DNA of 64,000 bases from Betaproteobacteria bacterium (GTDB taxonomy: Bacteria > Pseudomonadota > Gammaproteobacteria > Burkholderiales > Casimicrobiaceae): positions 2,750 through 66,749 of the forward strand of contig JANNKR010000059.1 in the NCBI GenBank assembly GCA_031396395.1, read 5' to 3'. The notes under the pieces are model-generated. The model did no database searches, had not been told where the DNA came from, and was given only the letters and a program-made list of their open reading frames with translations. This document shows positions 29,346-44,138 of this stretch, one piece after another (position 1 is the stretch's first letter; each line of letters opens with the position of its first letter). The translations under genes were made by a program, and so were the position numbers.

Positions 29346-31337
29346 CTACCAGTGAATGCCCTGCGTCAACTGCGCGAATGCCATCTGCTCGGGACTCAAA
29401 GCCTGCTGTACGGCCGGCTCGCCTTTCTTGCCCTGTGCCGCGGCTGAATCGGGAAACATGTTGAACGCGGTGTTGAGCAGGATCTGCGTCAGGCGCGGCG
29501 CGGCGGCGTGACTGATCGCCCCGAAGATGCCCAGCCTCGTCGCGATGCGCACCGACTTGTAGACAATCGCCTCGACCACCAGGTCGGCCGCCTGTTCCGG
29601 CGACAGGGTCGGGACATTCTCGTACATCTTGGTGGGCGCGATCATCGGCGTGCGCACCAGCGGCATGTTGATCGTCGTGAAATTGATGCCCTTGTCGAGG
29701 AACTCCGACGATGCGCAGGCCGCAAACGAATCCAGTGCCGCCTTGGACGCGACGTACGCGGAGAAACGCGGGGCATTCGACAGCACGCCGATCGACGAGA
29801 TATTGATGATGTGACCCTGATGCTGCTCGATCATCTTCGGCAGGAAGCCCATGATGAGCCTCAGCGCGCCGAAATAGTTCAACTGCATCGTGCGCTCGTA
29901 GTCGTGGAAGCGATCGAAGGAGTTGATCACCCCGCGCCGGATCGAACGGCCGGCATTGTTGACGAGATAGTGACAGGTGCCGTGTTCCTTCAGCACGCGC
30001 GCCACCAGCGCATCGCATGACGCGAGTTCAGACACGTCCGCCGTGTACATCCAGCAGCGCCCGCCCGCGGCTTCGATCTCCTTTTTCGTCTCGATCAGCT
30101 TTTCCTCGCCACGCGCGACCAGGATCACCTTGGCGCCGGCGCTGGCCATCTTGATCGCGGTCGCCTTGCCGATGCCCGACGACGCGCCGGTGACCACGAT
30201 CACCTTGTCCTTGACCTTGCCGGCAAGCGTGCGGTCGATGAAGAGATCGGGATCGAGATTGCGTTCCCAGTAGTCCCAGATCTTCGGCGCATAGGACTCG
30301 AGCGCCGGCACGCTGATGCCGGAGCCCTTCAAGGCCTTGACCGTTTCGCGGTTGTCGTAGCGGGTGGGCCAGTTGATGAACTGGAAGACGTCCTTCGGCA
30401 CGCCGAGGTCGGTGAGCACCGCGCGCATCATGCGCTTGACCGGCGCCAGCGAACCCAGGCCGTAGAGGATGGGCGCGGGAATGAAGCCGAACATCCGCGC
30501 GTTGAGGCGCATGGTCATCTGCGGCGCATGCGCCACCTTGGCGAAGATATTGAGCACCTCGCCGATCCGGTTCGGTTGCGGATCCGTCAGGTGGAAGCAC
30601 TTGCCGTCGAGGCCCTTCTTGTGCGCGAGATGGTCGATCGCATCGGCGACATAGTCCACGGGCACGATGTTGATGCGGCCACCTTCGATGCCGACCATCG
30701 GCATCCACGGCGGCAGCATGTTGCGCATTTTCTGGATGAACTTGAAGAAATAGTAGGGGCCGTCGATCTTGTCGATGTAGCCGGTCTTCGAGTCGCCGAC
30801 GACGAAGCCCGGGCGGTAGATTCGATACGGCCGCTTGCATTCGTTGCGGACCACGGCCTCGGAATCGTGCTTGGTCGCGAAGTAGGGATGATCGAGGTCT
30901 TCGGCCTCGTCGAACATGTCCTCGCGGAACACGCCGTCATAGAGGCCCGCGGCCGCGATCGAACTCACATGGTGGAAGCATTTGGCCGTCACGGCCGTGG
31001 CGAACTCGACGGCATGCCGGGTGCCATCGACGTTGGCAATCTGCTGCGATTGCGCATCGGCCTTGAGGTCGTAGATCGCGGCCAGGTGGAACATCTGGTC
31101 GACCTTGCCTTTGAGCTTGCGCAGGTCCGCATCCGCGACACCGAGGTTCTTCTTGCCGAGATCGCCGATGACCGGAATGATCTGCTTGTCGGTCGCGCCC
31201 CACTCGATGCGCAACGCATCAAGTTTCTTGACCGAGGCCTTGCGCACCAGCACATGGATCGGCTGTCCGCGTTTCAGGAGATTGCGGACCAGGAACTGTC
31301 CGATGAATCCGGTCGCGCCGGTGACGAAGTAGGCCAT
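29346..31337 (-). CDS. Two-domain fatty acyl-CoA reductase (alcohol-forming; Marinobacter Maqu_2507-like)
   Basis: N-terminal extended SDR (YFVTGATGFIG, FHLAAIYD, HVSSIAAAG, KIDGPYYFFK) + C-terminal SDR (VTGASSGIG, NNAGRSIRR, MQLNYFG, SAYVASK, ...QGIHW); AAGGAGG RBS. Confidence 0.88.
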   Translation of the reverse strand: MAYFVTGATGFIGQFLVRNLLKRGQPIHVLVRKASVKKLDALRIEWGATDKQIIPVIGDLGKKNLGVADADLRKLKGKVDQMFHLAAIYDLKADAQSQQIANVDGTRHAVEFATAVTAKCFHHVSSIAAAGLYDGVFREDMFDEAEDLDHPYFATKHDSEAVVRNECKRPYRIYRPGFVVGDSKTGYIDKIDGPYYFFKFIQKMRNMLPPWMPMVGIEGGRINIVPVDYVADAIDHLAHKKGLDGKCFHLTDPQPNRIGEVLNIFAKVAHAPQMTMRLNARMFGFIPAPILYGLGSLAPVKRMMRAVLTDLGVPKDVFQFINWPTRYDNRETVKALKGSGISVPALESYAPKIWDYWERNLDPDLFIDRTLAGKVKDKVIVVTGASSGIGKATAIKMASAGAKVILVARGEEKLIETKKEIEAAGGRCWMYTADVSELASCDALVARVLKEHGTCHYLVNNAGRSIRRGVINSFDRFHDYERTMQLNYFGALRLIMGFLPKMIEQHQGHIINISSIGVLSNAPRFSAYVASKAALDSFAACASSEFLDKGINFTTINMPLVRTPMIAPTKMYENVPTLSPEQAADLVVEAIVYKSVRIATRLGIFGAISHAAAPRLTQILLNTAFNMFPDSAAAQGKKGEPAVQQALSPEQMAFAQLTQGIHW

Positions 31338-31526
31338 CCCATCCTCCTTGCGGTATCGATCTTGGCGCCGATCCCGTTCCCGGAGCAACGGGAATCGATT
31401 CGACGTTCGTTGTTGGCTCATTGCGTACCCGGCGGGCCTGCCACATCCGCGCGGGTCGCGCCTGCGCATTCTACCCGGCGACCGGGTCGCGCGGCCGCGC
31501 GGGGATAGCCGCGCGGCGAAGATGCC

Positions 31527-31544
31527 ATTAGTATGAATGCTCTA
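31527..31544 (+). promoter_or_regulatory. Shared motif copy 1 (ATTAGTATGAATGCTCTA)
   Basis: In the divergent region between the acyl-CoA reductase and phasin 1; matches copies at 38641 and 40856. Confidence 0.65.
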
Positions 31545-31618
31545 GTCCTGCAACCTAAAATCGACCATGCCCCGTCGTTGCTTCGCATCGGCGCGGGTAC
31601 ATAACCGGAGAAACCACC

Positions 31619-32257
31619 ATGCTGAAGAAGGCCAAGGCCGGCCATGCCGCCAAGGAAACCGGCGACGGAAAGGACATGTCGCAAGCCGTCCTCGATTCGT
31701 CCCGGCATATATGGCTCGCCGGACTCGGCGCCTTTTCGCGAGCGCAGGCCGAAGGCATGAAGGTCTTCGAAACGCTGGTCAAGCAAGGAGAAGTCTTGGA
31801 AACGAAAACGCGCCGCGCGGCGGCAGACACTGCGGCCGCGGCCAAGGGTGCGGCCAAGGCCAAGGTCAGCGAGGTCAAGCAGGGTGTGGGCGGCACGTGG
31901 GACAAGCTGGAACAGGTCTTCGAGGACCGAGTGGCCCGCGCGCTGTCCAAACTCGGTGTGCATACGCAAACCGACGTGGAACGGCTGACCGAACGGGTGG
32001 ACGTGCTGTCCGAGGCGGTCAACGAACTGATCAAGGCCACCGGCGTCAAGCCCAGGCGGCGGCCGGCCCCGCCGGCTTCGACCGTCGAGCGCATGATGAA
32101 GGGCGCGGTCTCGACCGCCACGCGTACCACCACCAGTGCGGCGCGAACGGCCTCCAAGGCGGCGCGGTCGGCCACCGGGGCCGTGACCAGCGCCACCAAG
32201 ACCGCGCAGAAAACCGTGCGCAAGGCCACCCGGGTTGCCAAGGCGGCACTGAAGTAG
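31619..32257 (+). CDS. Phasin family (PhaF/PhaI-like) granule-associated protein with basic Ala/Thr/Lys tail
   Basis: SRHIWLAGLGAF..EGMKVFETLVKQGE, WDKLEQVFEDRVARALSKLGV. Confidence 0.9.
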   Translation: MLKKAKAGHAAKETGDGKDMSQAVLDSSRHIWLAGLGAFSRAQAEGMKVFETLVKQGEVLETKTRRAAADTAAAAKGAAKAKVSEVKQGVGGTWDKLEQVFEDRVARALSKLGVHTQTDVERLTERVDVLSEAVNELIKATGVKPRRRPAPPASTVERMMKGAVSTATRTTTSAARTASKAARSATGAVTSATKTAQKTVRKATRVAKAALK

Positions 32258-32306
32258 GCGCCGCGTCGCCGCCGGTGCCCCGGCCCGGGTCCGGCGAGCC
32301 TCGCGG

Positions 32307-32585
32307 TTACTCGCGGTTGAGCTTGTCGACCAGATTGATGTAGTTGGTCATTGCCTCGTCGCGGGTGGTGCCGGCCAGCTTGGACCAGGCGTCGTACTTG
32401 GCGCCGCCCACGAAATCGAAGCCGCCCGGGCGGTCGCCCTTGACGTCGCCCTCGGTGGCCTGCTTGTAGTACGAATAGAGCTTGAGCAACGTGGCGTTGT
32501 CGGGCTTCTTCTTCGTTTGCTTGGCCGCGCCGGTTGCGGCGTCGAACTTGGCCTTGAGATCGTCTTTCTTCGGGGCTGCGGCCAT
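32307..32585 (-). CDS. Acyl-CoA-binding protein (ACBP)
   Basis: LLKLYSYYKQATEGD, RPGGFDFVGGAKYDAW, AMTNYINLV; GAGGAGG RBS. Confidence 0.93.
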   Translation of the reverse strand: MAAAPKKDDLKAKFDAATGAAKQTKKKPDNATLLKLYSYYKQATEGDVKGDRPGGFDFVGGAKYDAWSKLAGTTRDEAMTNYINLVDKLNRE

Positions 32586-32683
32586 GCGGTCCTCCTCGTC
32601 CTGAATCGGCAATTCGTGCTACTTTAGCGCGAACGCAACAGCGCACGCAACGCATGCGCCTACGCCCAACTTCCCGCGAGACC

Positions 32684-34150
32684 ATGGCCGCGACTTCAAA
32701 ACGCGAAAAGATCTCCGCGGTCGATACCGCATGGCTGCGGATGGATCGGCCGCAGAATCTGATGATGATATGCGGCGTGATGCTGTTTCGTGACCGCATT
32801 TCGCTGTCCCGTCTGCGCGACGTCATCGGCGAGCGTTTTCTGAGCTTCCGCCGCTTTCGCCAGCGCGCGGTCGAGATGCCCGGGATGGCCTTCTGGGAAA
32901 CGGACCGGCACTTCGACATCGAGCGGCACGTGGTGCACACGGCGCTGCCCGGCAGCGCGGGGCGGAAGGAACTGCAGGAATTCGTGTCGCGGCTTGCCAC
33001 CACGCCGCTCGATCCGGCGCGGCCGATGTGGCAGTTTCACCTGGTCGACAACTACGCCGGCGGCAGCGCCGTGGTGGTGCGCATCCATCACAGCTACGCC
33101 GATGGCATCGCGCTGGTGCGGGTGATGCTGTCGATGACCGACGCCGGCCCCAATGGCCCGCCGGCGATGCCCTTCGAGCCGAGGCCTCGCCGCAAAGCCC
33201 AGGCGGAAGATGCGCTGGGCCAGTTGCTGGCACCGCTCTCCGGCGCGATGGACACCGCGCGCAAGATCGGCGCCACGATCCTCGACAAGGGGGCCGACCT
33301 CTGGTCGGACCCGAGCAAGGCGGTGGCGCTGGCCGGCCAGGGGACTGCACTGACCGCGGAAATCGCCAAGCTGGTGCTGATGCCCCAGGATTCGGCCACG
33401 CGCTTCAAGGGCAAGCCGGGGATCGGCAAGCGCGTTGCGTGGGCCGACCCGTTGCCGCTTGCCGACGTCAAGGCCATCGGCAAGGCGTTGGGGGCGTCGG
33501 TGAACGACGTCCTGCTGTCGTGCGTCGCGGGCGCCATTCGAGCCTACCTGGTCGGCAAGGGCGATGACGTGGAAGGCGTGATGATCCGCGCGTTGGTGCC
33601 CGTCAACCTGCGGCCGATGGAAAAGGCCTATAAGCTCGGCAATCAGTTCGGCCTGGTGTTCCTCGAATTGCCAATTGGCATCGAGAATCCGGTCGAGCGG
33701 CTCTACGCGGTGCGCGCCAACATGAATGCGCTGAAGGGCTCGTTCCAGCCGGTGCTCGCGTTGGGACTGCTGGCGGCAATGGGGGCCGCGCCCAAGGCGC
33801 TGCAGGAAGTCCTGCTGTATGCGTTGGCGCGCAACGCGACGTCGGTGATGACCAACGTGCCGGGGCCGCAGGAAGCGCTCTACCTCGCCGGCAAGCGGAT
33901 CGAAAGCATGATGGTCTGGGTACCGCAGTCAGGCGACATCGGCATGGGCGTGTCGATCCTGTCATACCACGGCTCGGTGCAGTTCGGCCTCATCACCGAT
34001 CGCGGCATGTGCCCCGACCCCGAGGCCATCATCGAGCGTTTCGCCGGTGAGTTCGAGCAGCTGGTGCTGGTCACGTTGATGGCGCCGTGGCCCCGGGAAG
34101 GCGATCTCGACCCGGCTGAAGCGGCAGCCGTCGCCGGGGTCCGGGCCTGA
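32684..34150 (+). CDS. Wax ester synthase / diacylglycerol acyltransferase (WS/DGAT)
   Basis: ISAVDTAWLRMD, PLDPARPMWQ, HHSYADG catalytic motif, SVNDV, PVNLR, GNQFG, TNVPGP. Confidence 0.93.
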   Translation: MAATSKREKISAVDTAWLRMDRPQNLMMICGVMLFRDRISLSRLRDVIGERFLSFRRFRQRAVEMPGMAFWETDRHFDIERHVVHTALPGSAGRKELQEFVSRLATTPLDPARPMWQFHLVDNYAGGSAVVVRIHHSYADGIALVRVMLSMTDAGPNGPPAMPFEPRPRRKAQAEDALGQLLAPLSGAMDTARKIGATILDKGADLWSDPSKAVALAGQGTALTAEIAKLVLMPQDSATRFKGKPGIGKRVAWADPLPLADVKAIGKALGASVNDVLLSCVAGAIRAYLVGKGDDVEGVMIRALVPVNLRPMEKAYKLGNQFGLVFLELPIGIENPVERLYAVRANMNALKGSFQPVLALGLLAAMGAAPKALQEVLLYALARNATSVMTNVPGPQEALYLAGKRIESMMVWVPQSGDIGMGVSILSYHGSVQFGLITDRGMCPDPEAIIERFAGEFEQLVLVTLMAPWPREGDLDPAEAAAVAGVRA

Positions 34151-34195
34151 GCAGTTGGTGCCTGCACCACACCGCAGCGCATCAGGGCTTCGGGT

Positions 34196-35179
34196 TCAGG
34201 GCCACGCCGGATAGGTGTTGGGAGCCGCGAAGGCTTCGCGCAGGTACTGATTGAGCGGCACCACCAGATCCTTGGTATTGAACCACTTGGCGTAGATGCG
34301 ACGGACTTCGCCGGACTGGAAGAGGTCGATCAGCGCGCGATTGACGATCTTCTCGAACGCCGGCTCGTCACGCCGCAGCATGATCGCGTACGGCTCGACC
34401 GAAACGTAGCGACCTACCACGGCGAAGTCATCCGGCTTCTTCGACTTCGAGATGAGCCCGTACAGCAGCACGTCGTCCATCGGAAAGGCGACGGCCTTGC
34501 CGTCCTCGACGGCTCTGAACGATTCGCCGTGGTCCCTCGCCACGATGATGTTCATGTTGAGCACCCGGTCGGTGTTCATCGCCACCATTATCTTTTCGCT
34601 GGTGGTGCCCTTGGTCACCACGATGTCCTTGCCGCGCAGGTCCTCGATGCTCGTGATGTTGGCAGTGCGCTTGGCCAGCATCTTGATGCCGGCGACGAAG
34701 GTCGTGTACGCGAAGGCGACCTGCTGCTGCCGCTCGCGGGTGTTGGTCGTCGATCCGCATTCAAGATCGACCTTGCCCGCGACCAGCATCGGGATGCGGT
34801 CGGACGACGACACCGGCACGAACCTGACGTCGAGCCGGGGCAGCTTGAGTTCGGCCTTGATGGCGTCAGCGATGCGCAGGCACAGGTCCACCGAGTATCC
34901 CTGTGCCTGCTTCTGCGCGTCGATGAACGAAAACGGCACGCTTGACTCCCGGACGCCGAGCGTGATCGCGCCGGTTTCGCGGATGCGGCGCAACGTGTCG
35001 ATCCGCTCCGCGGGTTTTTCGACCGCCTTGGCCTGGGTGATCGCTGTCGGCGCCGTGACGGCGGGCGCGACCTTGTCCTGCGCGCCTAGGGGCAAGGCCA
35101 GCAGCGAACCGGTGACGGCAAGCGCCACGGCCAGACGGAGAGCTACGGCCAGAAGCCGTATCGGTAGGCGTGACAACAT
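34196..35179 (-). CDS. Amino-acid ABC transporter periplasmic binding protein (GltI-like), without adjacent permeases
   Basis: LGVRESSVPFSF, DLECGSTTNT, AFPMDDVLL, SVEPYAIM. Confidence 0.88.
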   Translation of the reverse strand: MLSRLPIRLLAVALRLAVALAVTGSLLALPLGAQDKVAPAVTAPTAITQAKAVEKPAERIDTLRRIRETGAITLGVRESSVPFSFIDAQKQAQGYSVDLCLRIADAIKAELKLPRLDVRFVPVSSSDRIPMLVAGKVDLECGSTTNTRERQQQVAFAYTTFVAGIKMLAKRTANITSIEDLRGKDIVVTKGTTSEKIMVAMNTDRVLNMNIIVARDHGESFRAVEDGKAVAFPMDDVLLYGLISKSKKPDDFAVVGRYVSVEPYAIMLRRDEPAFEKIVNRALIDLFQSGEVRRIYAKWFNTKDLVVPLNQYLREAFAAPNTYPAWP

Positions 35180-35208
35180 CGGTTCTCTTCTCAAGATGGC
35201 TATCGACG

Positions 35209-35985
35209 CTATTCCAGTTCCGATTTCGCGAGTTCGACGTCCAGACGCTCCATGGCGTCGAGCGGCTTTTGCGCTGCCGCCTGCTCATAGAGCTTGGTGG
35301 CGTCCGCGATCCTGCCCTTGCCGAAGAGCATGATGAGCCCATTCCCGTATTCGATGCGCGTGATCGCGGATTCGGGAAAGAGCTTGATTGCCTTTTCGAA
35401 GTGCTCGACCGCCGAGTCCTTCTTGGCGCCATAGGTCAGGCCGGCGACGATGCCTCCGACCTTGTTGATGACCTCGGCCTGATAGGACCCGAACGCGATG
35501 TGCGCGTCGGCGTGCTTGGCTTCCAGCTTGATCGTGTTCAGCAGCGCATCCTTGATCTTGCCCCCGTAACCCTGCGCCAGTGCCTTGGCCACGCTGATGC
35601 CCTGGCTGTACCGGCCGAGCGCGAACGCATAAAAGTAATGTCCATTGGCGTCCTTCGGTGCTTCCGCGCGGCGCTCATCGGCCCAGCCCGCGGCTTCCTC
35701 GAAGAGCGCCAGCTTGGCCGTGGCCGCCTTCTCGAGGTAGTGGGCGTGGACGACCTGCGCCTTGACGGCGGCGTTGACACCAGGCCCGCCAGCCGCCATG
35801 CCGGCTTCAACCGCCTGCTGGAACTCGCCCGCGTGAAAATGCCGCCAGGCCTCCAGCACGCCCGCCTCCTTGGGGAACGGTTCGCAATCGCCACGGTGAA
35901 GGCGAGCCCACTGCTTCTTCAATGCCGCCGCGTCATAGGAATAGGCTTTGTCGGCGTGCGGAAATTTCGCCCATTTCTTCGCCAT
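35209..35985 (-). CDS. Conserved hypothetical protein, helical/TPR-like
   Basis: 258-aa ORF with typical codon use; WARLHRGDCEPFP, FALGRYSQGISVAKAL; in an operon with the TetR and patatin. Confidence 0.75.
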   Translation of the reverse strand: MAKKWAKFPHADKAYSYDAAALKKQWARLHRGDCEPFPKEAGVLEAWRHFHAGEFQQAVEAGMAAGGPGVNAAVKAQVVHAHYLEKAATAKLALFEEAAGWADERRAEAPKDANGHYFYAFALGRYSQGISVAKALAQGYGGKIKDALLNTIKLEAKHADAHIAFGSYQAEVINKVGGIVAGLTYGAKKDSAVEHFEKAIKLFPESAITRIEYGNGLIMLFGKGRIADATKLYEQAAAQKPLDAMERLDVELAKSELE

Positions 35986-36012
35986 CTTTTCTTCCTCCCG
36001 GCGCCGCGGCGC

Positions 36013-36669
36013 CTAAAGATAATCTTCGCCGAGGCGCTCGATCAGCGTGCGGCCATCCCCCAACAGGAACGGCGCGATCAGGGCCAGCACCTGATACACG
36101 GCGTGGTCGAGACTCACGTCACGGGGGTCGCCGTGCTGCCCCGCCGCGAGGCCCGCGACGCGCTGCCACGACATCCAGTACGTGGAAACCAGGACCACGT
36201 TGGCCGCCAAAGCGCCGATTTCGCGCTCGGTGGCGAGCATCTGGCCGCTTTGCACCAAGGCTCGACACAACTCTATCACGGTGCGTTCGCCGCGCCGGGT
36301 GACATCCGCGAAGCGCGTTGCGAGCTTGCGATTGCGGGACGTGATCTCGTCCAGGTCGCGATAGAAGAACCGGTATTCGCGCATCCGCTCGAACAGGGCA
36401 TGCAGCAGGAACCACAGGTCCTCCACGCCGGGCGGCGGGTCCTGCGGCACGACCAGCAGTGGCAGGACGGTGGCCTCGTAGCCGGCGTACAGCTCGCCGA
36501 TGATGTCGTCCTTGTTGCGGAAGTGGTAGTACAGGTTGCCGGGGCTGATGTTCATCTCGTCGGCGATATCGGCCGTCGTGATGTGCGGCTCGCCGAAACG
36601 ATTTAACAGCGCGAGACTCGTTTCATGGATGCGCTCGCGCGTGCGCCGCGGGGTTTTTTTCTCTGCCAT
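36013..36669 (-). CDS. TetR/AcrR-family regulator (PhaD-like)
   Basis: RTRERI..LNRFGEPHITTADIADEMNISPGNLYYHFRNKDDII; YRFFYRDL. Confidence 0.9.
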   Translation of the reverse strand: MAEKKTPRRTRERIHETSLALLNRFGEPHITTADIADEMNISPGNLYYHFRNKDDIIGELYAGYEATVLPLLVVPQDPPPGVEDLWFLLHALFERMREYRFFYRDLDEITSRNRKLATRFADVTRRGERTVIELCRALVQSGQMLATEREIGALAANVVLVSTYWMSWQRVAGLAAGQHGDPRDVSLDHAVYQVLALIAPFLLGDGRTLIERLGEDYL

Positions 36670-36720
36670 GGGCCGGCCAGTGTAAGGCCAAGCCGCCCGC
36701 ACGCAAACTGTGCAGCGCGC

Positions 36721-38019
36721 TCAGCGCGTCACGGCCAGCGCGCGTTCGAGGGTTTCGAGCGTATGGCGCAATTCGCGCTTGGCCCGGCGCACGTTGTTGC
36801 CCTTGATGTCGGTATGCAGCGGCCGCGCATCGTTGACCGCCGCGTTGACGTGGCGCGTCGTGTCGTTCAGCTTGTCCACCCGCAGCGTGATGCCATGCTG
36901 CTTCAGCAGCGGTTTGAGGTGGCTGGCGCGGGCGAGCAGGCTCTGCCGGGTCTTGGCAAAGGCCAGCCCGCAGAGGCGCTTGCGCTGCCAATAGCTGAAG
37001 ATGTTGGCAAAGAACATGTCGGCATCCTCGCGGTCCGGCTCGAACAACAGGATGTCGGCATCCGGATACTGCTGCCGATACTTCTCCATGCCCGTCTTCA
37101 TCCGCGAATGGATGATGGCGCGAAAGGTCTGCCCCAGCACCAGCGGCAGTCCGCCCTGGTTGAGCTTGGCAACCGTGAGGCGCTTGCCGTGGGTGGACGA
37201 ACTGGCATCGAAGGGGACCAGCGGGTTGATGCACAGCAAGAGCTGCACGCCCTCGTCGAGCGCCACGGAGGCATGCAGCGTCTTGTTGAGCGCGCCATCG
37301 ACGTAGTGCGCGCCGTTGATGACGACCGGTGGAAACAGGCCCGGCAGGGCACTCGAGGCCTCGATCGCGCGGGAGATCGGCACGTGCTCGTGCTGTCCCG
37401 GGCCAAAGGTGACCGAGGCGCCAGTGTCGAGATTGGTCGCGACAAGAAAGAGCTTGTGCTTCAGCTTGCGGAAGTCGTTGGTGCGCCCCGGCGCGGCGAA
37501 GAGCCGCGCCAGAAAGGTATCGATCGCCCGGTTCTCGAAGAAGCCGGTAGGGATGGCCCGCGCCAGTGTTGCAAAGGACTCCACCAGTCCATGATGGAAG
37601 GGGTCCCGCACATACTGCAGCGTGGCGCGCGCGGCCAAGCGCGGCAATGACGCGAGGCAGCGGCCGAATTCCGCGAACGCGGGCCGCAGAAAGATCTCGG
37701 GCTTCAGCGCGGCGTCGGCGCCGTCGTCGATGAAAAGCCGGTACATCTGCGCCGGCGAGAGGCCATTGGCCAGTGCCGCAGCGACGAATCCGCCCGACGA
37801 CACGCCGACGTACACGTCGAGGTCATTGAGGTCGAGGCCATCGAGTGAATCGGCCAGGGCCAGCAACGCACCGACCTCGTAGATGCCGCCCAACGGACCG
37901 CCGCCGGCAAGCGCCAGCCCGACGCCGGACTTGCCGCCGCGGACTGGGGCACGGGTCTTTGCTGCTGCGCTACGCTTCCGGACACGCGTTGCGCGTCCGG
38001 AAGGTTTCGGGTCCGACAT
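36721..38019 (-). CDS. Patatin-like phospholipase/esterase
   Basis: LAGGGPLGG, GVSSG nucleophile, ASSALPG, YVDG; AGGAG RBS. Confidence 0.9.
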   Translation of the reverse strand: MSDPKPSGRATRVRKRSAAAKTRAPVRGGKSGVGLALAGGGPLGGIYEVGALLALADSLDGLDLNDLDVYVGVSSGGFVAAALANGLSPAQMYRLFIDDGADAALKPEIFLRPAFAEFGRCLASLPRLAARATLQYVRDPFHHGLVESFATLARAIPTGFFENRAIDTFLARLFAAPGRTNDFRKLKHKLFLVATNLDTGASVTFGPGQHEHVPISRAIEASSALPGLFPPVVINGAHYVDGALNKTLHASVALDEGVQLLLCINPLVPFDASSSTHGKRLTVAKLNQGGLPLVLGQTFRAIIHSRMKTGMEKYRQQYPDADILLFEPDREDADMFFANIFSYWQRKRLCGLAFAKTRQSLLARASHLKPLLKQHGITLRVDKLNDTTRHVNAAVNDARPLHTDIKGNNVRRAKRELRHTLETLERALAVTR

Positions 38020-38086
38020 GGCGCTCCTCATTCAAGACGAAGGGAGCGTCTGCCGGCCCCCTTTCGCATTCAATGGTAGCGGAGAA

Positions 38087-38572
38087 TCACCTGCGGGTGG
38101 CGGACTTCGCAGCGCGCTTCACACGCTTGACAACCTTGGGCGTGCGGGTTGCCGTGGCGCGCTTGGCCTTGACCGTGCGCTTGACGCGCTTCACTGCCTT
38201 GGCACGCGTGGCTGGTTTCAGCATCGCGGGCAACGTCACCTTCGGCAGCGACTTCGGCAGATTGCTCTGCACGAGAGTGACGGCAGTATCCGCGGCTTGC
38301 TTGACCGTGGCCTGTACCGTCGTGCGCGCCTGTTTCCAGAACGTGTTGGCGACGGCAAACGAACCTTCGAGGCGATCGCCGACGAGGCGGATCGTCCGCG
38401 ATTCGACGGCCGTGCCTTCCTTGACCAGCGTGCGGAAGACATTGCTGGCTTCGGTTTGCGCCCATTCGCGCGTGACCACTGCGGCGCCGAGGCTGGCAAG
38501 CCACATCTGGCGGGAAGCGTTCATCACGGCATCGCCGACGGGGTTGAAACGGGTTTCGATGGTGGTGCGCAT
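38087..38572 (-). CDS. Phasin family protein with Lys/Arg-rich tail
   Basis: SRQMWLASLGA..FRTLVKEG; tail KAVKRVKRTVKAKR..KRVKRAAK; AGGAG RBS. Confidence 0.8.
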   Translation of the reverse strand: MRTTIETRFNPVGDAVMNASRQMWLASLGAAVVTREWAQTEASNVFRTLVKEGTAVESRTIRLVGDRLEGSFAVANTFWKQARTTVQATVKQAADTAVTLVQSNLPKSLPKVTLPAMLKPATRAKAVKRVKRTVKAKRATATRTPKVVKRVKRAAKSATRR

Positions 38573-38640
38573 GGTGAGTTCTCCTGTTGATGAAGTCACG
38601 CGTGCGGGGCACGCTTGAACACGAATTTACGCAGATCGTC

Positions 38641-38658
38641 TAGAGCAGTCACACTAAT
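38641..38658 (-). promoter_or_regulatory. Shared motif copy 2 (ATTAGTGTGACTGCTCTA on minus strand)
   Basis: About 68 bp upstream of phasin 2, same orientation relative to its gene as copy 1. Confidence 0.65.
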
Positions 38659-40298
38659 CGATACCGCGAAGGGGAAGCGGCTGCGGCGGGAGGCTTCAGC
38701 TGGGCGGCAAGTCCGGCGGCCAGGCGGGCCGCGAGTGCGTAGATCGAGAGCTGCGGATTGGCACCGATCGAAGTCGGGAACAGCGAACCATCCATCACAT
38801 GCAGATTGCGCAGGTGGTGATGCCGGCCGTCGACGTCGACGACGGCGCGGCGGGGATCAGGGCCGAGCGGTGCGCCGCCCATCACGTGGGCCGACACCAC
38901 GCGCGTGACGAGCGGCGCGAGTTCGAAGCCGCCGATGGCCGCTTTTGCCTGCGTGAAACTGCTGAAGGCAACGCCTGAGCCATGGCCCGGGCTGACGGAG
39001 GTTGCGCCGGCGGCAAACTGGATCTCCGCCATCGCCACGAAGGCACGGCGAACGCCGTCCCAGACGAACGGGGTCAACGGGTAGTCGAGGACCGGCGTGC
39101 CGTCGTCGCGCAAGTGCACGGTTCCGCCCGGACTGTCGGGATGAAAGCCGTCGCGCAGCAACGCTATCACGACCTGCAGGTGGCGGAATTGCTGCATCGA
39201 GCGTGCATGCGCCGCGCCATCCTCGGGCAGCGTGATGGCAGTGAGGATGGGATGCAGCGGTGGGGCCTCGAGCTTGTAGCCGATCGGACCATCGACCGGT
39301 TGAGTATCGAGAAAGTGGTCCGAGAAGATGGTTTGCGGCGCGCCGGCAAAGGCATCGATCGTGTCGGGCATCACGGCTGCCGAAACCACGGAGGGATGCA
39401 GGAACGTCCGGCGTCCGATCAGGGACAGTGGATCGGGCAGGCGGCTGCGCAGCAGCAGTCCCGGCGTGCCGATGGCGCCTGCCGCCGCCACAAAGGTCGT
39501 ACCGCGCAGGGTCACCCGATGTCCGGTGGACGCTGTACCGGCGGCATTCATCGCCCTCGCTTCGAGGGCCACCACGCGATCACCGCGCATGACGAAGCGT
39601 TCGGCACGCACGCGCGTCACCAGCGTCGCGCCCTTCGCCAGCGCCGCGGGAATGGTGGTCACCAGCATCGATTGCTTGGCATTCGTCGGACAGCCCATGC
39701 CGCAGTAGCCGAGGTTCCAGCAACCCTTCACATTGCGTCGGATGGCGGGTGCGGCGATCCCGATGCGGTGGGCGCCCCGCGCGAGCGCGCCGTTGTTGGC
39801 GTTGGGCGCCACTTCCCACGGCGCGATCGACAGCCGGGCCTCCATGCGCGAGAACCATGGCGCCAGCGCCGCTTCGGTGAACCCGGGCAGCCCGCAGTGT
39901 TCGCGCCAGTGGGCGAGCGTGGTGGGCGGCGTGCGGAACGAGCTGGTCCAGTTCACGGTGGTACCGCCGCCGACGCATCGGCCTTGCAGGATGTTGATGG
40001 CCTTGTCGCGCGTCTTGCGCGCGGCCGAGTCCATATAGAGCTGTGGATACGCCTCCGCTTCGAGCATGTTGAAATCACGTGAAGACTTGAGCGGACCTTC
40101 CTCGACCAGCAGCACGCGCAGCCCTGCGTCGGCCAGGATTTCGGCAGCAGTGCCGCCGCCGGCGCCGCTGCCGACGATGACGACATCGGCCTCGAGCGTG
40201 GTGGCGCCGGCGAGGGTGGCCGCGTCGACGATGCGCCATCCCGCGGTGGCTGCACCGGCCCACGGATCGATGATGGTGGAGGACGGACCTGCGCTCAT
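38649..40298 (-). CDS. GMC-family flavin oxidoreductase, LaoA-like long-chain alcohol oxidoreductase
   Basis: EADVVIVGSGAGGG, GRCVGGGTTVNWTSSFRTP, GCWNLGYCGMGCPTNAKQSML, SAHVMGG, FPTSIGANPQL. Confidence 0.85.
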   Translation of the reverse strand: MSAGPSSTIIDPWAGAATAGWRIVDAATLAGATTLEADVVIVGSGAGGGTAAEILADAGLRVLLVEEGPLKSSRDFNMLEAEAYPQLYMDSAARKTRDKAINILQGRCVGGGTTVNWTSSFRTPPTTLAHWREHCGLPGFTEAALAPWFSRMEARLSIAPWEVAPNANNGALARGAHRIGIAAPAIRRNVKGCWNLGYCGMGCPTNAKQSMLVTTIPAALAKGATLVTRVRAERFVMRGDRVVALEARAMNAAGTASTGHRVTLRGTTFVAAAGAIGTPGLLLRSRLPDPLSLIGRRTFLHPSVVSAAVMPDTIDAFAGAPQTIFSDHFLDTQPVDGPIGYKLEAPPLHPILTAITLPEDGAAHARSMQQFRHLQVVIALLRDGFHPDSPGGTVHLRDDGTPVLDYPLTPFVWDGVRRAFVAMAEIQFAAGATSVSPGHGSGVAFSSFTQAKAAIGGFELAPLVTRVVSAHVMGGAPLGPDPRRAVVDVDGRHHHLRNLHVMDGSLFPTSIGANPQLSIYALAARLAAGLAAQLKPPAAAASPSRYRLV

Positions 40299-40831
40299 GC
40301 GAGCACCGGCGGCCCGGGGTAGCCGATCGCGACCCAGGATCTTGGATTGCCGTACCAGGCGGCAAAGGTCAGCTGGTGCAGGGCACCGTAGGCAGAGCGG
40401 AGCAGCAACAGTGAACTGTCGCGCATGCGGTCGAGGCACAAGCGCACCTGGTCGGGTGCGGCCTGCCGCCATGGGGCATCGATGCGCGCCACCGCAATGC
40501 GCACCGGTGGCAGCGACAGCAGGTCGAAGAGTTGCGCCAGTTCGGCCTGTGCCGCGGCAGGCAGGCCACCGACGGCGACCTCCAGCGCAGCAAGCGTCTC
40601 GTCCACAGCGGCGGCCTGCGCGGCGGGCTCCTTCGGCAGGGCGCCGGCGAGTATGACCGGCACGATGGCACGGAGGATGTCGATGCCGTCGGCGGAAATG
40701 TACGATGGCGCAACGCCATGGGCGGGCAACCGCGGGCGCCGCAGCCATCCCGCGACGACCAGGGCGCCGGCGCCAACGACGCCGGCGGCGATGAACGCGC
40801 GACGACCCGGCTTGAGTGGTGAATTCGGCAC
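40295..40831 (-). CDS. Twin-arginine-signal small partner protein (LaoB-like)
   Basis: GRRAFIAAGVVG signal; AELAQLFDLL, LLRSAYGALHQL..WY..GYPGPP; ATGA overlap with the GMC gene; start uncertain. Confidence 0.75.
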   Translation of the reverse strand: MPNSPLKPGRRAFIAAGVVGAGALVVAGWLRRPRLPAHGVAPSYISADGIDILRAIVPVILAGALPKEPAAQAAAVDETLAALEVAVGGLPAAAQAELAQLFDLLSLPPVRIAVARIDAPWRQAAPDQVRLCLDRMRDSSLLLLRSAYGALHQLTFAAWYGNPRSWVAIGYPGPPVLA

Positions 40832-40855
40832 AGGCAGACGATAGGCATGCCCCCG

Positions 40856-40873
40856 TAGAGCAAACAATCTAAT
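40856..40873 (-). promoter_or_regulatory. Shared motif copy 3 (ATTAGATTGTTTGCTCTA on minus strand)
   Basis: In the divergent region upstream of the laoB-like gene. Confidence 0.65.
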
Positions 40874-40929
40874 GCACCGCGCGGTGCCTGCTAGACTTCA
40901 CCTTGTCGCATCGCGCGGTAACGCGTTCC

Positions 40930-41685
40930 ATGGCCGAAACCATCGCCGCAAGCGCCGCTCAAGGCGCCCTCATCCGTGAGCTCGAACGTGTGGCGCGCCT
41001 GCACGGCGAACGCGTGGACAACCCCATCCTCGCCGGCGCATTGAATCGCGTTGCGCTTTGGCAGTCGCGCCGATTGCGCATGACTTATGCGGACCTGGCC
41101 GTGGATCGGCGGTACGCCAAGGCGGTCGAGTTCTTCCAGAACGATCTCTATGGCGCAGGGGACTTCTCCCGTCGCGATGCCGACCTGGCGCGCGTGGTCC
41201 CGGTCATGGTGAAGGTACTGCCGGCGGGCGTGATCAATACGATGGCGCAGGCGGTGGAATTGAATGCGTTGTCACAGGAGCTTGATCGTGCGCTGCTGTC
41301 GCGATTGCCGCGCGCCGACGGCCACCTGACCGTCGCCGATTACTGCAGGTCGTACCGCCGTGCCGGCAACATTCCGCTGCGGCGTCGTCAGATCGGCCTC
41401 ATCGTCGAGGTGGGGAGTGCGCTCGACCGCTATGTGGGGAAGCCGCTGATTCGTGGCGCGCTGGCCATGATGCGGCAGCCGGCGAGGATGGCCGGCCTCG
41501 GCGCCCTGCAGGACTTTCTGGAGCGCGGCTTCTCGTCGTTTCGCAGCATGGGTGGGGCCGTGACGTTTCTCGACACGGTGCAGACCCGCGAAACGGAAAT
41601 TCTGGAAGCGATCGTCGGTGGCGCGGTCGATGTGTTTCCCGATCCGCTGACGTTTCGCGCGCCCGAACCGGTTGCGCCGCGCTGA
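40930..41685 (+). CDS. Conserved hypothetical protein (FFLEELY-motif-like)
   Basis: WQSRRLRMTYADL..YAKAVEFFQNDLYG, LQDFLERGF. Confidence 0.7.
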   Translation: MAETIAASAAQGALIRELERVARLHGERVDNPILAGALNRVALWQSRRLRMTYADLAVDRRYAKAVEFFQNDLYGAGDFSRRDADLARVVPVMVKVLPAGVINTMAQAVELNALSQELDRALLSRLPRADGHLTVADYCRSYRRAGNIPLRRRQIGLIVEVGSALDRYVGKPLIRGALAMMRQPARMAGLGALQDFLERGFSSFRSMGGAVTFLDTVQTRETEILEAIVGGAVDVFPDPLTFRAPEPVAPR

Positions 41686-41715: not shown

Positions 41716-41997
41716 TCAGGGCTTGCCGATCAGCTTGTCGAACTGCAGGTGGATTTCCTTTTCGAACGCCGGCTTGAGCGGCGTCAGCAACCAGCCGAGG
41801 TTCACGTCGAGGTGAAAGCGGTCCTTGGCCACCAGCAGGCGGCCAGTGACGCCGGGGCGCTCGAACTCGACCTCCTCGCCATCCCATTCGTATTCGAGTT
41901 CGAAGCGCTTGCGCAGATCCTTGGCGATCTTTTCGGCGACATCGCGGGCCTTCTTGTGTGACAGCGTATGCGTGCGGATGATCTTGATCGTGGCCAT
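41716..41997 (-). CDS. Polyhydroxyalkanoate granule region protein (PHA_gran_rgn-like)
   Basis: MATIKIIRTHTL..AEKIAKDL..FELEYEWDG..FERPGVTG..LGWLLTPLK; GGAGG RBS. Confidence 0.85.
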   Translation of the reverse strand: MATIKIIRTHTLSHKKARDVAEKIAKDLRKRFELEYEWDGEEVEFERPGVTGRLLVAKDRFHLDVNLGWLLTPLKPAFEKEIHLQFDKLIGKP

Positions 41998-42164
41998 CGG
42001 TGCCTTCCTCCCAGCCGCGGAGTATAGCCAACGCGCGCATTGGCGTCCCATGGATTGTAGGCGCGCACGCAGGCACAATCGCTGCGCGAACAAGACGCTG
42101 CAGGTTTGAGGTGCAATCGTGGGGGGGGGGGCCTGCCGCGGCAGCGGCGAGTGATGCGCAGCGC

Positions 42165-43085
42165 TCAGGCGCGCCGTCCCATGGCAATCGCAGCGATCAC
42201 GAGGCCTGCGCTGATGTAGGTTGCGGTCGTCACCGGTTCGGCCAGCAACCACGCCGACGCGAAGATCGTCAGGAACGGCTGCAGCAGTTGCGTCTGCCCG
42301 ACGGCGGCGATGCCTCCCACCGCAAGGCCGCGGTACCAGACGAAGAATCCCAGGAATTGCGAAATGACCGCGACATAGGCGAACGCAGCCCATGCCTGCC
42401 ACGGCGCCGCGAGACTGCGGCTGTCGAAGGTGAGCCAGGTCGGGATCACGACAAATGGCGCGGCCAGGATCAGCACCCAGCAGATGACCTGCCAGCCGCC
42501 GAGAATGCGGGCAAGGCGCGCGCCTTCGGCATAGCCGATAGCAGCCGCGGCCACCGCGCCGGCGAGCAGGAGGTCGGCCGGCTGCAGCGCGCCGCCGCCC
42601 TCCCAGAGGGCGAAGACCATCACGACCGCGCTGCCGACGCCAGCCCAGATCCAGAATCGGCGCCGCGGCCTCTCGTGCGCCAGCCATGCGCCGGCCAATG
42701 CGGTGGCGAGTGGCAACAGGCCTGCGACCACCGCCCCGTGGGACGCGGGCACATGGCGCATCGCGAATGCCGTCAATACGGGCCATCCTGCCACCACGCC
42801 CAACGCGACCACGCCCAACCGCGGCCATAGCGCGCGCCGGGGTATCGGCGTCCGCGTGGCGGCCAGCACGATGGCGGCCAGCACCGCCGCCACCAGGGCG
42901 CGACCGAGGCCGACAAACACCGGATCGAGCCACGTCACCGCGAGCCGGGTGGCCGGAAGTGTGCCGCTGAACGCGACCACGGCGAGCAGTCCAAGCCAGA
43001 GGCCGAGGTTGCGATTGGCTGCGGTCGGAACGTAGGCGACGCCTGGCGCAGATACGCTGGGCAGGACCGGCTGGCGGGAGGGCAT
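42165..43085 (-). CDS. DMT/EamA family transporter
   Basis: FSGTLPATR, SQFLGFFVWYRGL, QLLQPF; 10 TM. Confidence 0.9.
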   Translation of the reverse strand: MPSRQPVLPSVSAPGVAYVPTAANRNLGLWLGLLAVVAFSGTLPATRLAVTWLDPVFVGLGRALVAAVLAAIVLAATRTPIPRRALWPRLGVVALGVVAGWPVLTAFAMRHVPASHGAVVAGLLPLATALAGAWLAHERPRRRFWIWAGVGSAVVMVFALWEGGGALQPADLLLAGAVAAAAIGYAEGARLARILGGWQVICWVLILAAPFVVIPTWLTFDSRSLAAPWQAWAAFAYVAVISQFLGFFVWYRGLAVGGIAAVGQTQLLQPFLTIFASAWLLAEPVTTATYISAGLVIAAIAMGRRA

Positions 43086-43272
43086 GGTGACGAAATTGTA
43101 TCCGACCGATTTTATCAACTAAGGGCGGCCGCTCGGGGTGACGGCGCCTGGCGCCAACGGGCCATCGTGCAACGTCAGGTGCCGCGCGGGCCCGGGTCCA
43201 TAAGATACGGAGCGCCGCGGCCGACCGATGGTTGGCCCAATCCACGCCAGACCGGAATGGACGCCTTGGGAC

Positions 43273-43319
43273 TTGACAACTACATTCGATCAAACATAGG
43301 ATTAAAACAGTTGTTTGAA
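43273..43319 (+). promoter_or_regulatory. sigma70 promoter with PsrA-type operator
   Basis: TTGACA(43273)-N18-TAGGAT(43297); AAAC-AGTT-GTTT palindrome within TTAAAACAGTTGTTTGAA (43302-43319). Confidence 0.7.
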
Positions 43320-43352
43320 TACTCCGTTTCCAGGCATCCGTTTCGAGGACCA

Positions 43353-44075
43353 ATGGACACCAACGTTGTTGCCATTCCCGAGCTGCGCGGTGCCGCCGCG
43401 ACCAAGGTGCGCCTGCTCGACGCGGCCGAGTCCCTGTTCATGGAGCATGGCTTCGAAGCCACCAGCTTGCGCTTGATCACGGCAGCCGCGGGCGCCAATC
43501 TGGCGGCCGCGAATTATCACTTCGGCAGCAAGGAAGCGATGTTCGAAGCGGTGCTGACCCGGCGGCTTGATCCGATGAACCAGGAGCGGGTCGAGCTGCT
43601 GGATCGTTTCGAGCGCGAAAGCGCGCCGATGCCGCTTGGTTGCGATCGCATTCTCGCCGCCCTGTTCATTCCGGCGCTGCGGCTGGCGCGTGATCCGGCA
43701 CTGGGCGGCAACAATTTCCTGCGCCTGCTGGGGCGCGCCTACGCCGATCCGGCGCCGTTCATCCGGCGCTTCCTGTCGGAGCAGTACGCGCTGATGATCG
43801 CCCGTTTCAAGGCGGCGTTCGGGCGCGCCTTGCCGCATCTGTCGAAGAAAGAGCTGTCGTGGCGCTTGCACTTCATCATGGGCGCGCTGTCGTACACGCT
43901 GGCTGGTACCGACGCGCTCAAGATCATTTCCGAATTGAACCCGCTCGCCACGGACAACGACGAAATACTGCTGCGCCGGCTCGCCCCGTTCCTGCTGGCC
44001 GGCCTCACCGCGCCATTGCCTGATTTATCCGACGTGACCCGCGAGTTCGATGCCGAAATCGAACGCGGCCGCTGA
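43353..44075 (+). CDS. TetR-family fatty-acid degradation regulator (PsrA-like)
   Basis: TKVRLLDAAESLF..GFEATSLRLIT..NLAAANYHFGSKEA; heads the fad operon. Confidence 0.88.
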   Translation: MDTNVVAIPELRGAAATKVRLLDAAESLFMEHGFEATSLRLITAAAGANLAAANYHFGSKEAMFEAVLTRRLDPMNQERVELLDRFERESAPMPLGCDRILAALFIPALRLARDPALGGNNFLRLLGRAYADPAPFIRRFLSEQYALMIARFKAAFGRALPHLSKKELSWRLHFIMGALSYTLAGTDALKIISELNPLATDNDEILLRRLAPFLLAGLTAPLPDLSDVTREFDAEIERGR

Positions 44076-44138
44076 TACACCGTACCCCCTGCGGGCAGGT
44101 CGCGCACCGCGCACCGCCTGCCGCCAAGGAGCTTTGCC

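Follow-up and report, generated by a model that had tools for sequence, protein, structure and literature searches.

PhaD and LaoR, two regulators of the TetR family that have been studied separately in Pseudomonas, are the closest described counterparts of the system considered here: an 18-bp box that occurs at three promoters in a 64,000-nucleotide stretch of a betaproteobacterial genome from the family Casimicrobiaceae (assembly GCA_031396395.1, contig JANNKR010000059.1, positions 2,750 to 66,749; the whole stretch is referred to below as the window). Binding of PhaD at the phaC1 and phaI promoters (OPRc1 and OPRi) has been shown experimentally and footprinted (de Eugenio et al. 2010, as summarised in PMC7590123). 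That account describes the PhaD operators at PC1 and PI as single sites, each with 6-bp half-sites in inverted orientation and 8 bp between them, reports PhaD as an activator and proposes an acyl-CoA-type ligand for it (PMC7590123). LaoR is a TetR regulator of the laoCBA genes for long-chain alcohol oxidation in Pseudomonas aeruginosa, the gene organisation being that cited in PMC7318663.

The three boxes of the window lie upstream of two phasin genes and of a laoBA-like gene pair, in a cluster that also encodes a TetR regulator of the PhaD/LaoR family (Table 1). The box is probably the operator of this cluster-encoded TetR, an assignment that we put at a probability of roughly 0.85 from sequence comparison. 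The three copies would then be conserved predicted binding sites on the -35 regions of three promoters in a wax-ester/lipid-body cluster. The comparisons below support a predicted operator of the PhaD/LaoR class, that is, a known switch placed in a different metabolic setting.

The box in the genome

The 18-bp pattern (ATTAGnnTGnnTGCTCTA, ATTAGNNTGNNTGCTCTA) has exactly three matches in the window, and none of 100 dinucleotide shuffles gave any match. Across the whole assembly (4,018,641 bp in 387 contigs, 65.7% GC), there are three exact copies, all of them inside the cluster, and two unrelated copies with two mismatches; no copy with one mismatch was found anywhere in the 4.02 Mb. About 0.004 exact matches are expected from composition alone, by arithmetic from the GC content. 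With a weight matrix built from sites of the genus, the three boxes score 31-33 bits, and no other site in the genome scores above 20 bits. Because exact copies are so rare genome-wide, because the gap in matrix score is so wide and because the shuffles gave nothing, the boxes are taken to be real and far beyond chance. An earlier note, made from the letters of this DNA alone, had listed three copies with coordinates, strands and a common orientation. All three were found where it had put them, facing phasin 1, phasin 2 and laoB/laoA, respectively, and with three exact copies in 4.0 Mb the motif is far from random frequency. From the boxes of the phasin 1 promoter (P1) and the phasin 2 promoter (P2) to the phasin start codons downstream, the distance is 69-74 nt.

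Conservation within the genus

When at most one mismatch was allowed, 20 of the 24 genus genomes had the box, its copies grouped in a span of 7-10 kb, and a reversed-pattern control gave almost nothing. In the form wTTAGnnTGnnnGCTCTA, it stands at the same three promoters (phasin 1, phasin 2 and laoB) in 21 of the 24. These 21 are all the genomes that carry the cluster; two of them have slightly more diverged boxes, and synteny is conserved. The other three have no box, no TetR and no reductase, the whole cluster being missing, and for that reason they were discarded as an uninformative test of dependence on the TetR. Two outgroup matches with one mismatch were set aside as well. One, internal to pilO in genome G033, is attributed to chance, unlike the clustered matches, and the other, on contig C170 of G022, lies away from the cluster.

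The element is sharply bounded. In 62 aligned sites from the genus, the information content is about zero outside positions 1-18. TTAG (positions 2-5), N10 and CTA (positions 16-18) form a frame that is invariant or nearly so, and 59 of the 62 sites have A or T at position 1, which the search pattern left unconstrained. The phylogenetic footprint thus consists of a box kept at orthologous promoters throughout the genus within flanks that are randomised. The three promoters had been proposed in the earlier note to form one regulon, and the comparative evidence agrees with this, the same three promoters keeping the box genus-wide.

Promoter geometry and mode of regulation

A TAnnnT hexamer follows the box at a distance of 11-12 nt in 59 of the 62 genus sites, although it was absent from the search pattern. 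Its genus forms are TAGAAT at P1, TAnnTT at P2 and TATCGT at the lao promoter (PL), and at phasin 1 the orthologous spacers have TAGAAT or TACAAT. Taken as a -10 element, this hexamer makes box positions 7-12 (nTGayt) the -35 region of a sigma-70-type promoter with a 17-18-bp spacer. The conserved TTAG and GCTCTA blocks flank this -35 hexamer, and the centre of the operator falls at about -31.5, directly on it. The -35 hexamers match TTGACA at just 3-4 of 6 positions, with their TG invariant, and it is mainly because of these weak hexamers that a standard sigma-70 consensus scan put none of the three promoters above its threshold (7-8 of 12 matches). The promoter assignment therefore rests on the phylogenetic footprint. 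Sigma-54 and extracytoplasmic function (ECF) sigma promoters were rejected on inspection of the sequence, as the conserved bases and spacing do not fit them. At PL, the GTG start codon of the LaoB-like gene is only 7 nt past the predicted -10 hexamer TATCGT (window 40831-40843), and the lao transcript may have no leader or almost none.

In the proposed mechanism, a dimer of the TetR would bind the degenerate inverted repeat TTAG-N10-CTA(A), with a half-site of approximately TTAG(A/T)(G/A)(T/C)G, centred on the -35 region of the three sigma-70-type promoters. P1 would serve phasin 1 and probably the WS/DGAT (wax ester synthase/diacylglycerol acyltransferase), P2 would serve phasin 2, the patatin lipase, the TetR itself, a tetratricopeptide repeat (TPR) protein and a solute-binding protein, and PL would serve laoB and laoA. 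Since the TetR gene lies in the P2 operon, the regulator would control its own synthesis, and the three promoters would make up one autoregulated regulon for the coating of neutral-lipid bodies, their mobilisation and the oxidation of fatty alcohols. An acyl-CoA or a related fatty-acid-derived ligand is expected by analogy with PhaD and LaoR, and the genes would be induced when it is abundant.

As to the sign of the control, we lean slightly towards PhaD-like activation, because the distance from operator to -10 is that of the PhaD-activated phaI promoters and because the -35 hexamers are weak. The strongest alternative, for which the odds are somewhat below even, retains the same operator and the same TetR but makes the protein a classical repressor that blocks sigma region 4 at the -35 until an acyl-CoA-type ligand releases it. 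An operator centred at about -31.5 covers the -35, a position that normally excludes RNA polymerase, and with good -10 boxes (TAGAAT, TAAAAT) and an invariant TG in the -35, these promoters might have no need of an activator. LaoR-type relatives have the same kind of palindrome, and repression is the usual mode of the TetR family; LaoR itself is reportedly a repressor. However, the 11-nt spacing between operator and -10 is identical to that of the phaI promoters, at which PhaD is reported to be an activator (PMC7590123), and -35 hexamers that fall so short of TTGACA and below the scan threshold are what is expected of activator-dependent promoters.

Co-inheritance with the TetR regulator

Of 301 genomes sampled from the order, 51 encode homologs of the cluster TetR with 40-60% identity; such homologs are also present in a few other orders of the class, and about 55 of these TetR loci were compared. 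A core module, in which the box separates the reductase from a phasin-patatin-TetR-TPR series, often with a WS/DGAT, recurs in many families of Burkholderiales and in other orders. In the other families, the reductase/phasin spacer carries the box as wTTAGTGTGnnnnCTCTA, each time beside an ortholog of the cluster TetR, and several lineages have it as a clean palindrome, such as CATAGTGTGAACACTCTAAT. A count of TTAG-N10-CTAA or TTAG-N8-CTCTA over 79 TetR loci (1.44 Mb) gave 87 sites, compared with 22 in reversed-sequence controls. The box is present at 44 of 53 phasin-linked TetR loci, at both of the lao-linked ones and at 3 of 24 others, the last group being homologs without a phasin or lao match nearby. 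The genome of the window itself has a single TetR of the PF13972 subfamily at E <= 1e-20, and its gene lies inside the P2-driven operon.

The likeness extends to the PhaD system. Locus L088, from a class-level relative, is a confirmed class II pha cluster (phaC1-phaZ-phaC2-phaD-phaF-phaI), and the TetR in its phaD position is 36% identical to that of the window (E = 1.9e-36). It carries the palindrome TTTAGAGGGCATTTTCTAAT 214 nt upstream of phaC1 and CTTAGGGTGCCGATTCTAAT upstream of phaI, both with the architecture reported for the PhaD operators at PC1 and PI (PMC7590123). A TTAG-N10-CTAA palindrome in the same register upstream of phaC1 was seen in this locus only. Upstream of phaI, the form yTAGTATGnnnnTTCTAA was present in all 15 Pseudomonas-family regions examined, with a -10-like hexamer exactly 11 nt downstream, and of the 18 positions of the box at P1, 14 are identical to the best Pseudomonas-type box upstream of phaI.

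The genome of L088 also encodes a second TetR, LaoR-type and 35% identical, with the same recognition helix, that is divergent from laoC-laoB-laoA, and the spacer between them contains the palindrome TTTAGAGTCATTGCTCTAAA. A comparable arrangement of TetR and lao genes is found in another order (L090). As far as checked, no published LaoR operator sequence was found, and this palindrome is a putative counterpart on the LaoR side. This helix, ISPGNLYYHF, does not differ among the window TetR, the PhaD-type proteins and the LaoR-type proteins. In a maximum-likelihood tree, the PhaD-type protein falls on a long branch outside the clade of wax-cluster TetRs (97/94 support), the latter largely follow taxonomy, and the LaoR-type proteins nest among class-level relatives. 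The window TetR is therefore a member of the same subfamily and an ortholog of neither PhaD nor LaoR. The solved structures closest to it, 3nnr and 3rh2, are deposited as TetR-family regulators with no functional name. That the local PhaD-like TetR has its operator in this box had been suggested before from the window by itself; conservation in the genus, co-inheritance with the TetR, likeness to the phaI box and an identical helix now lend this suggestion support.

Some observations weigh against the assignment. The genomes of the genus that have no box have no cluster at all, which ties the box, at the level of the genus, to the cluster and not to the TetR in particular. Most of the 24 other TetR homologs share the helix and have no box within 3 kb, and the helix alone thus does not predict a nearby site. 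The symmetry of the box is poor in the genus, where only TAG and CTA are symmetric and the final A of CTAA occurs in 8 of 62 sites. The earlier note's dyad of the form TAG-N10-CTA is consequently real and is clearer in other lineages, but is weak in this genus. The equation of the L088 palindromes with OPRc1 and OPRi is a putative one by matching architecture and location, not by comparison of letters. Finally, the source is an uncultured, metagenome-assembled genome, and the operator assignment rests on comparison between sequences.

Other readings of the box

It is very unlikely that the box is bound by a different regulator, be it a second TetR of the window (TetR2, PF17939) or an unrecognised DNA-binding protein such as the product of the FFLEELY-motif gene. 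Within the genus, TetR2 shares synteny with the cluster, and the FFLEELY gene adjoins a box in every genus locus, even in one that lacks laoBA (L031). Nevertheless, both are absent or non-adjacent in minimal modules of other families that keep the box (L043, L048, L049, L051, L057 and others). Among the loci compared, synteny of TetR2 is confined to a single family (f1), and box-keeping loci of other families gave no TetR2 match. The same box is also found in pha clusters, where PhaD is the demonstrated binder, and the FFLEELY protein is without a recognisable DNA-binding domain.

There is similarly little chance that the box is a mere promoter element, a -35 and spacer signature that an alternative sigma factor or RNA polymerase would read in the absence of any dedicated regulator. 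The strict spacing to the -10 and the TG at the -35 position are as such an element would have them. However, the TTAG and GCTCTA blocks flank the -35 hexamer and do not form it, other lineages have the element as a true palindrome, the genome contains no more than three copies, and the element is inherited with a single TetR subfamily. A chance resemblance, a dispersed repeat or the end of a mobile element has nothing but the AT-richness of the box in its favour and is practically negligible in view of the shuffles and of the box being kept at orthologous positions between randomised flanks.

Divergent genes and a possible fourth site

Two of the boxes lie in spacers shared with divergent genes, and the earlier note had suggested that the regulon may extend to these, the fatty acyl-CoA reductase and the FFLEELY gene. 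Both have -10 elements of their own at variable distances from the box, and the extension is doubtful for the reductase and holds as a plausible but unconserved feature for FFLEELY. The reductase -10 (TAGAAT, TACAAT or TATAAT) is strongly conserved in the genus and stands anywhere from about 10 to 115 nt away from the box, 53 nt in the window. It is thus not locked in position to the P1 operator (O-P1), and it is doubtful that this operator controls the reductase in this genome. The TAGACT -10 of FFLEELY is likewise conserved, at 7 to about 95 nt from the box. With the 18-nt gap of the window, its -35 would overlap the TTAG end of the lao operator (O-PL). Co-regulation of FFLEELY by O-PL is plausible here on this predicted geometry and is not conserved across the genus.

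In some lineages, the reductase/phasin spacer contains two adjacent boxes, 14-32 bp apart (L062 12854-12901, L055 12602-12650, L050 7257-7306, L058 12846-12885 and L093 11557-11594). Such pairs possibly represent one box per divergent promoter.

The 20-bit site of the genome, ATTAGAACGTTTCGTCTA, is outside the window on contig C252 (3301-3318), about 50 nt upstream of a gene for a 600-aa acyl-CoA dehydrogenase, and is followed after 12 nt by a -10-like TACGCT. The neighbours there are presumably etfA and then the acyl-CoA dehydrogenase gene, as recognised by eye. About six genomes of the genus that have this type of spacer carry similar sites at the same position, which hints that the regulon extends to beta-oxidation.

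Gene content of the cluster

The features of the cluster are collected in Table 1.

Table 1. Genes, putative operators and predicted promoter elements of the cluster (window coordinates)
Feature	Position	Strand	Remarks
Fatty acyl-CoA reductase with short-chain dehydrogenase/reductase (SDR) fusion	29346-31337	-	
Candidate -10 TAGAAT, fatty acyl-CoA reductase gene	31468-31473	-	53 nt from O-P1
Putative operator copy O-P1 (ATTAGTATGAATGCTCTA)	31527-31544	+	covers -35 region of phasin 1 promoter
Predicted -10 TAAAAT, phasin 1 promoter	31556-31561	+	11 nt past operator
Phasin 1	31619-32257	+	PF05597, 137 bits; basic A/K/T/R-rich C-terminal tail
WS/DGAT	32654-34150	+	downstream of phasin 1
Solute-binding protein	34196-35194	-	distal gene of P2 operon
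TPR protein	35209-35985	-	distal gene of P2 operon
TetR regulator, PhaD/LaoR family	36013-36669	-	PF00440 + PF13972; recognition helix ISPGNLYYHF; proposed binder
Patatin-like lipase	36721-38031	-	in P2 operon
Phasin 2	38087-38572	-	PF05597, 39 bits; first gene of TetR-containing operon
Predicted -10 TAAATT, phasin 2 promoter	38624-38629	-	11 nt past operator
Putative operator copy O-P2 (ATTAGTGTGACTGCTCTA)	38641-38658	-	heads operon phasin2-patatin-TetR-TPR-SBP (SBP, solute-binding protein); TGA stop of GMC/LaoA-like gene (38651-38649) falls inside it
Glucose-methanol-choline (GMC) oxidoreductase, LaoA-like	38649-40298	-	
LaoB-like protein	40295-40831	-	twin-arginine signal; ATGA overlap with laoA-like gene
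Predicted -10 TATCGT, lao promoter	40838-40843	-	12 nt past operator
Putative operator copy O-PL (ATTAGATTGTTTGCTCTA)	40856-40873	-	-35 region of laoB/laoA promoter; spacer shared with FFLEELY gene
Candidate -10 TAGACT, FFLEELY gene	40892-40897	+	18 nt from O-PL
FFLEELY-motif protein	40930-41685	+	NF047641
Second TetR (TetR2)	43167-44075		PF00440 + PF17939; upstream of FadE-type acyl-CoA dehydrogenase

Both phasins (31619-32257 and 38087-38572) end in long basic A/K/T/R-rich tails that resemble the histone-like DNA-binding tail of Pseudomonas PhaF, a protein that interacts with PhaD (PMC7590123). Judged by the names given to closely related proteins, the organism belongs among uncultured Burkholderiales. 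Freshwater-sediment metagenomes contain DNA of this organism, and a metatranscriptome of such sediment yielded short contigs that match the coding sequence of phasin 1 (window 31621-32051) with 0-1 differences, which suggests that phasin 1 is expressed in situ, though DNA carry-over is possible.

TetR2 is followed by an 838-aa FadE-type acyl-CoA dehydrogenase (window 43167-46655), and the two look like a separate regulator pair for fatty-acid degradation. A long open frame on the minus strand (41716-43353) matches PF09650 (PHA_gran_rgn, a putative polyhydroxyalkanoate (PHA) system protein) over its C-terminal 90 residues or so; the real PF09650 gene is probably the short one at the 3' end of this frame.

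Three genes with a PhaC_N domain, that is, PHA synthases, are encoded on contigs other than that of the cluster (C23, C151 and C288), so that only the cluster lacks them and the organism is not free of PHA synthases. The weight matrix scan of the genome found no high-scoring box near any of the three. A 15.5-bit site at C151:9265 lies between convergent genes beside a PhaP-like gene, judged from open reading frame coordinates and N-terminal sequence only, and was dismissed as spurious.

Comparison with known systems

Regulation of phasins by a granule-linked protein is also known from PhaR/PhaP autoregulation in Cupriavidus and Paracoccus, where, as proposed here, a regulator of this kind controls phasin promoters. 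PhaR, however, is unrelated to the TetR family and its operators are TGC-rich, and an operator of the PhaR type was rejected for the window, as the cluster has neither TGC-rich sites nor a PhaR gene. A search for literature on the regulation of wax-ester clusters by PhaD or phasins found nothing relevant.

The resemblance to PhaD is closer. The window TetR has the PF13972 C-terminal domain and the identical recognition helix, and its predicted operator is an inverted TTAG...CTA(A) repeat of 18-20 bp that precedes PF05597 phasin genes and has a -10 at 11 nt. Like the PhaD operators, it is built of two inverted half-sites, each of about 6 bp, with some 8 bp between them and a symmetry that is degenerate in the genus and clean elsewhere, and the phasins of the cluster have basic C-terminal tails like that of PhaF. 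By contrast, the cluster in the window encodes the reductase, the WS/DGAT, the patatin lipase and LaoBA, and not phaC1-phaZ-phaC2; the right half-site is GCTCTA, with its last A lost; and the TetR gene sits within a phasin-led operon and not at the end of phaC1ZC2D.

It is this right half that recalls LaoR, since the GCTCTA half of TTTAGAGTCATTGCTCTAAA is identical to that of the window box, and a LaoB-like gene and a GMC LaoA-like gene stand under the box. The window TetR is not divergent from the lao genes, as in the LaoR-type arrangement, but lies 2 kb downstream in the next operon, with the FFLEELY gene divergent from laoB instead. laoC is missing from the window operon, and the regulator would serve two phasin promoters in addition.

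A more far-reaching proposal, which is tentative and which we consider rather doubtful as a whole, is that one TetR of the PhaD/LaoR family has merged the PhaD regulon for phasins and the LaoR regulon for alcohol oxidation, separate in Pseudomonas, by way of hybrid operators that are PhaD-like on the left (TTAGTrTG) and LaoR-like on the right (GCTCTA). As an activator centred on the -35, it would coordinate the coating and mobilisation of wax-ester bodies with alcohol recycling, and the reductase-phasin-patatin-TetR-TPR module would be ancestral and widespread in Burkholderiales. If this is true, PF05597 phasins and control of the PhaD type are no less a feature of neutral-lipid bodies than of PHA granules.

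The apparent role of the module, in many Burkholderiales, is the formation and turnover of wax-ester or triacylglycerol bodies. For this uncharacterised and widespread set of genes (reductase, phasin, patatin lipase, TetR, TPR and WS/DGAT), the box offers a testable operator consensus and a three-promoter regulon. Its many natural variants lend themselves to the study of how a TetR bound at the -35 can activate transcription, and the compact pair of promoter and regulator, probably responsive to acyl-CoA, could be of use in engineering. PhaD and LaoR are linked through a common recognition helix and a common class of operator, and a single regulator in this cluster appears to serve the targets that are split between two regulators in Pseudomonas.

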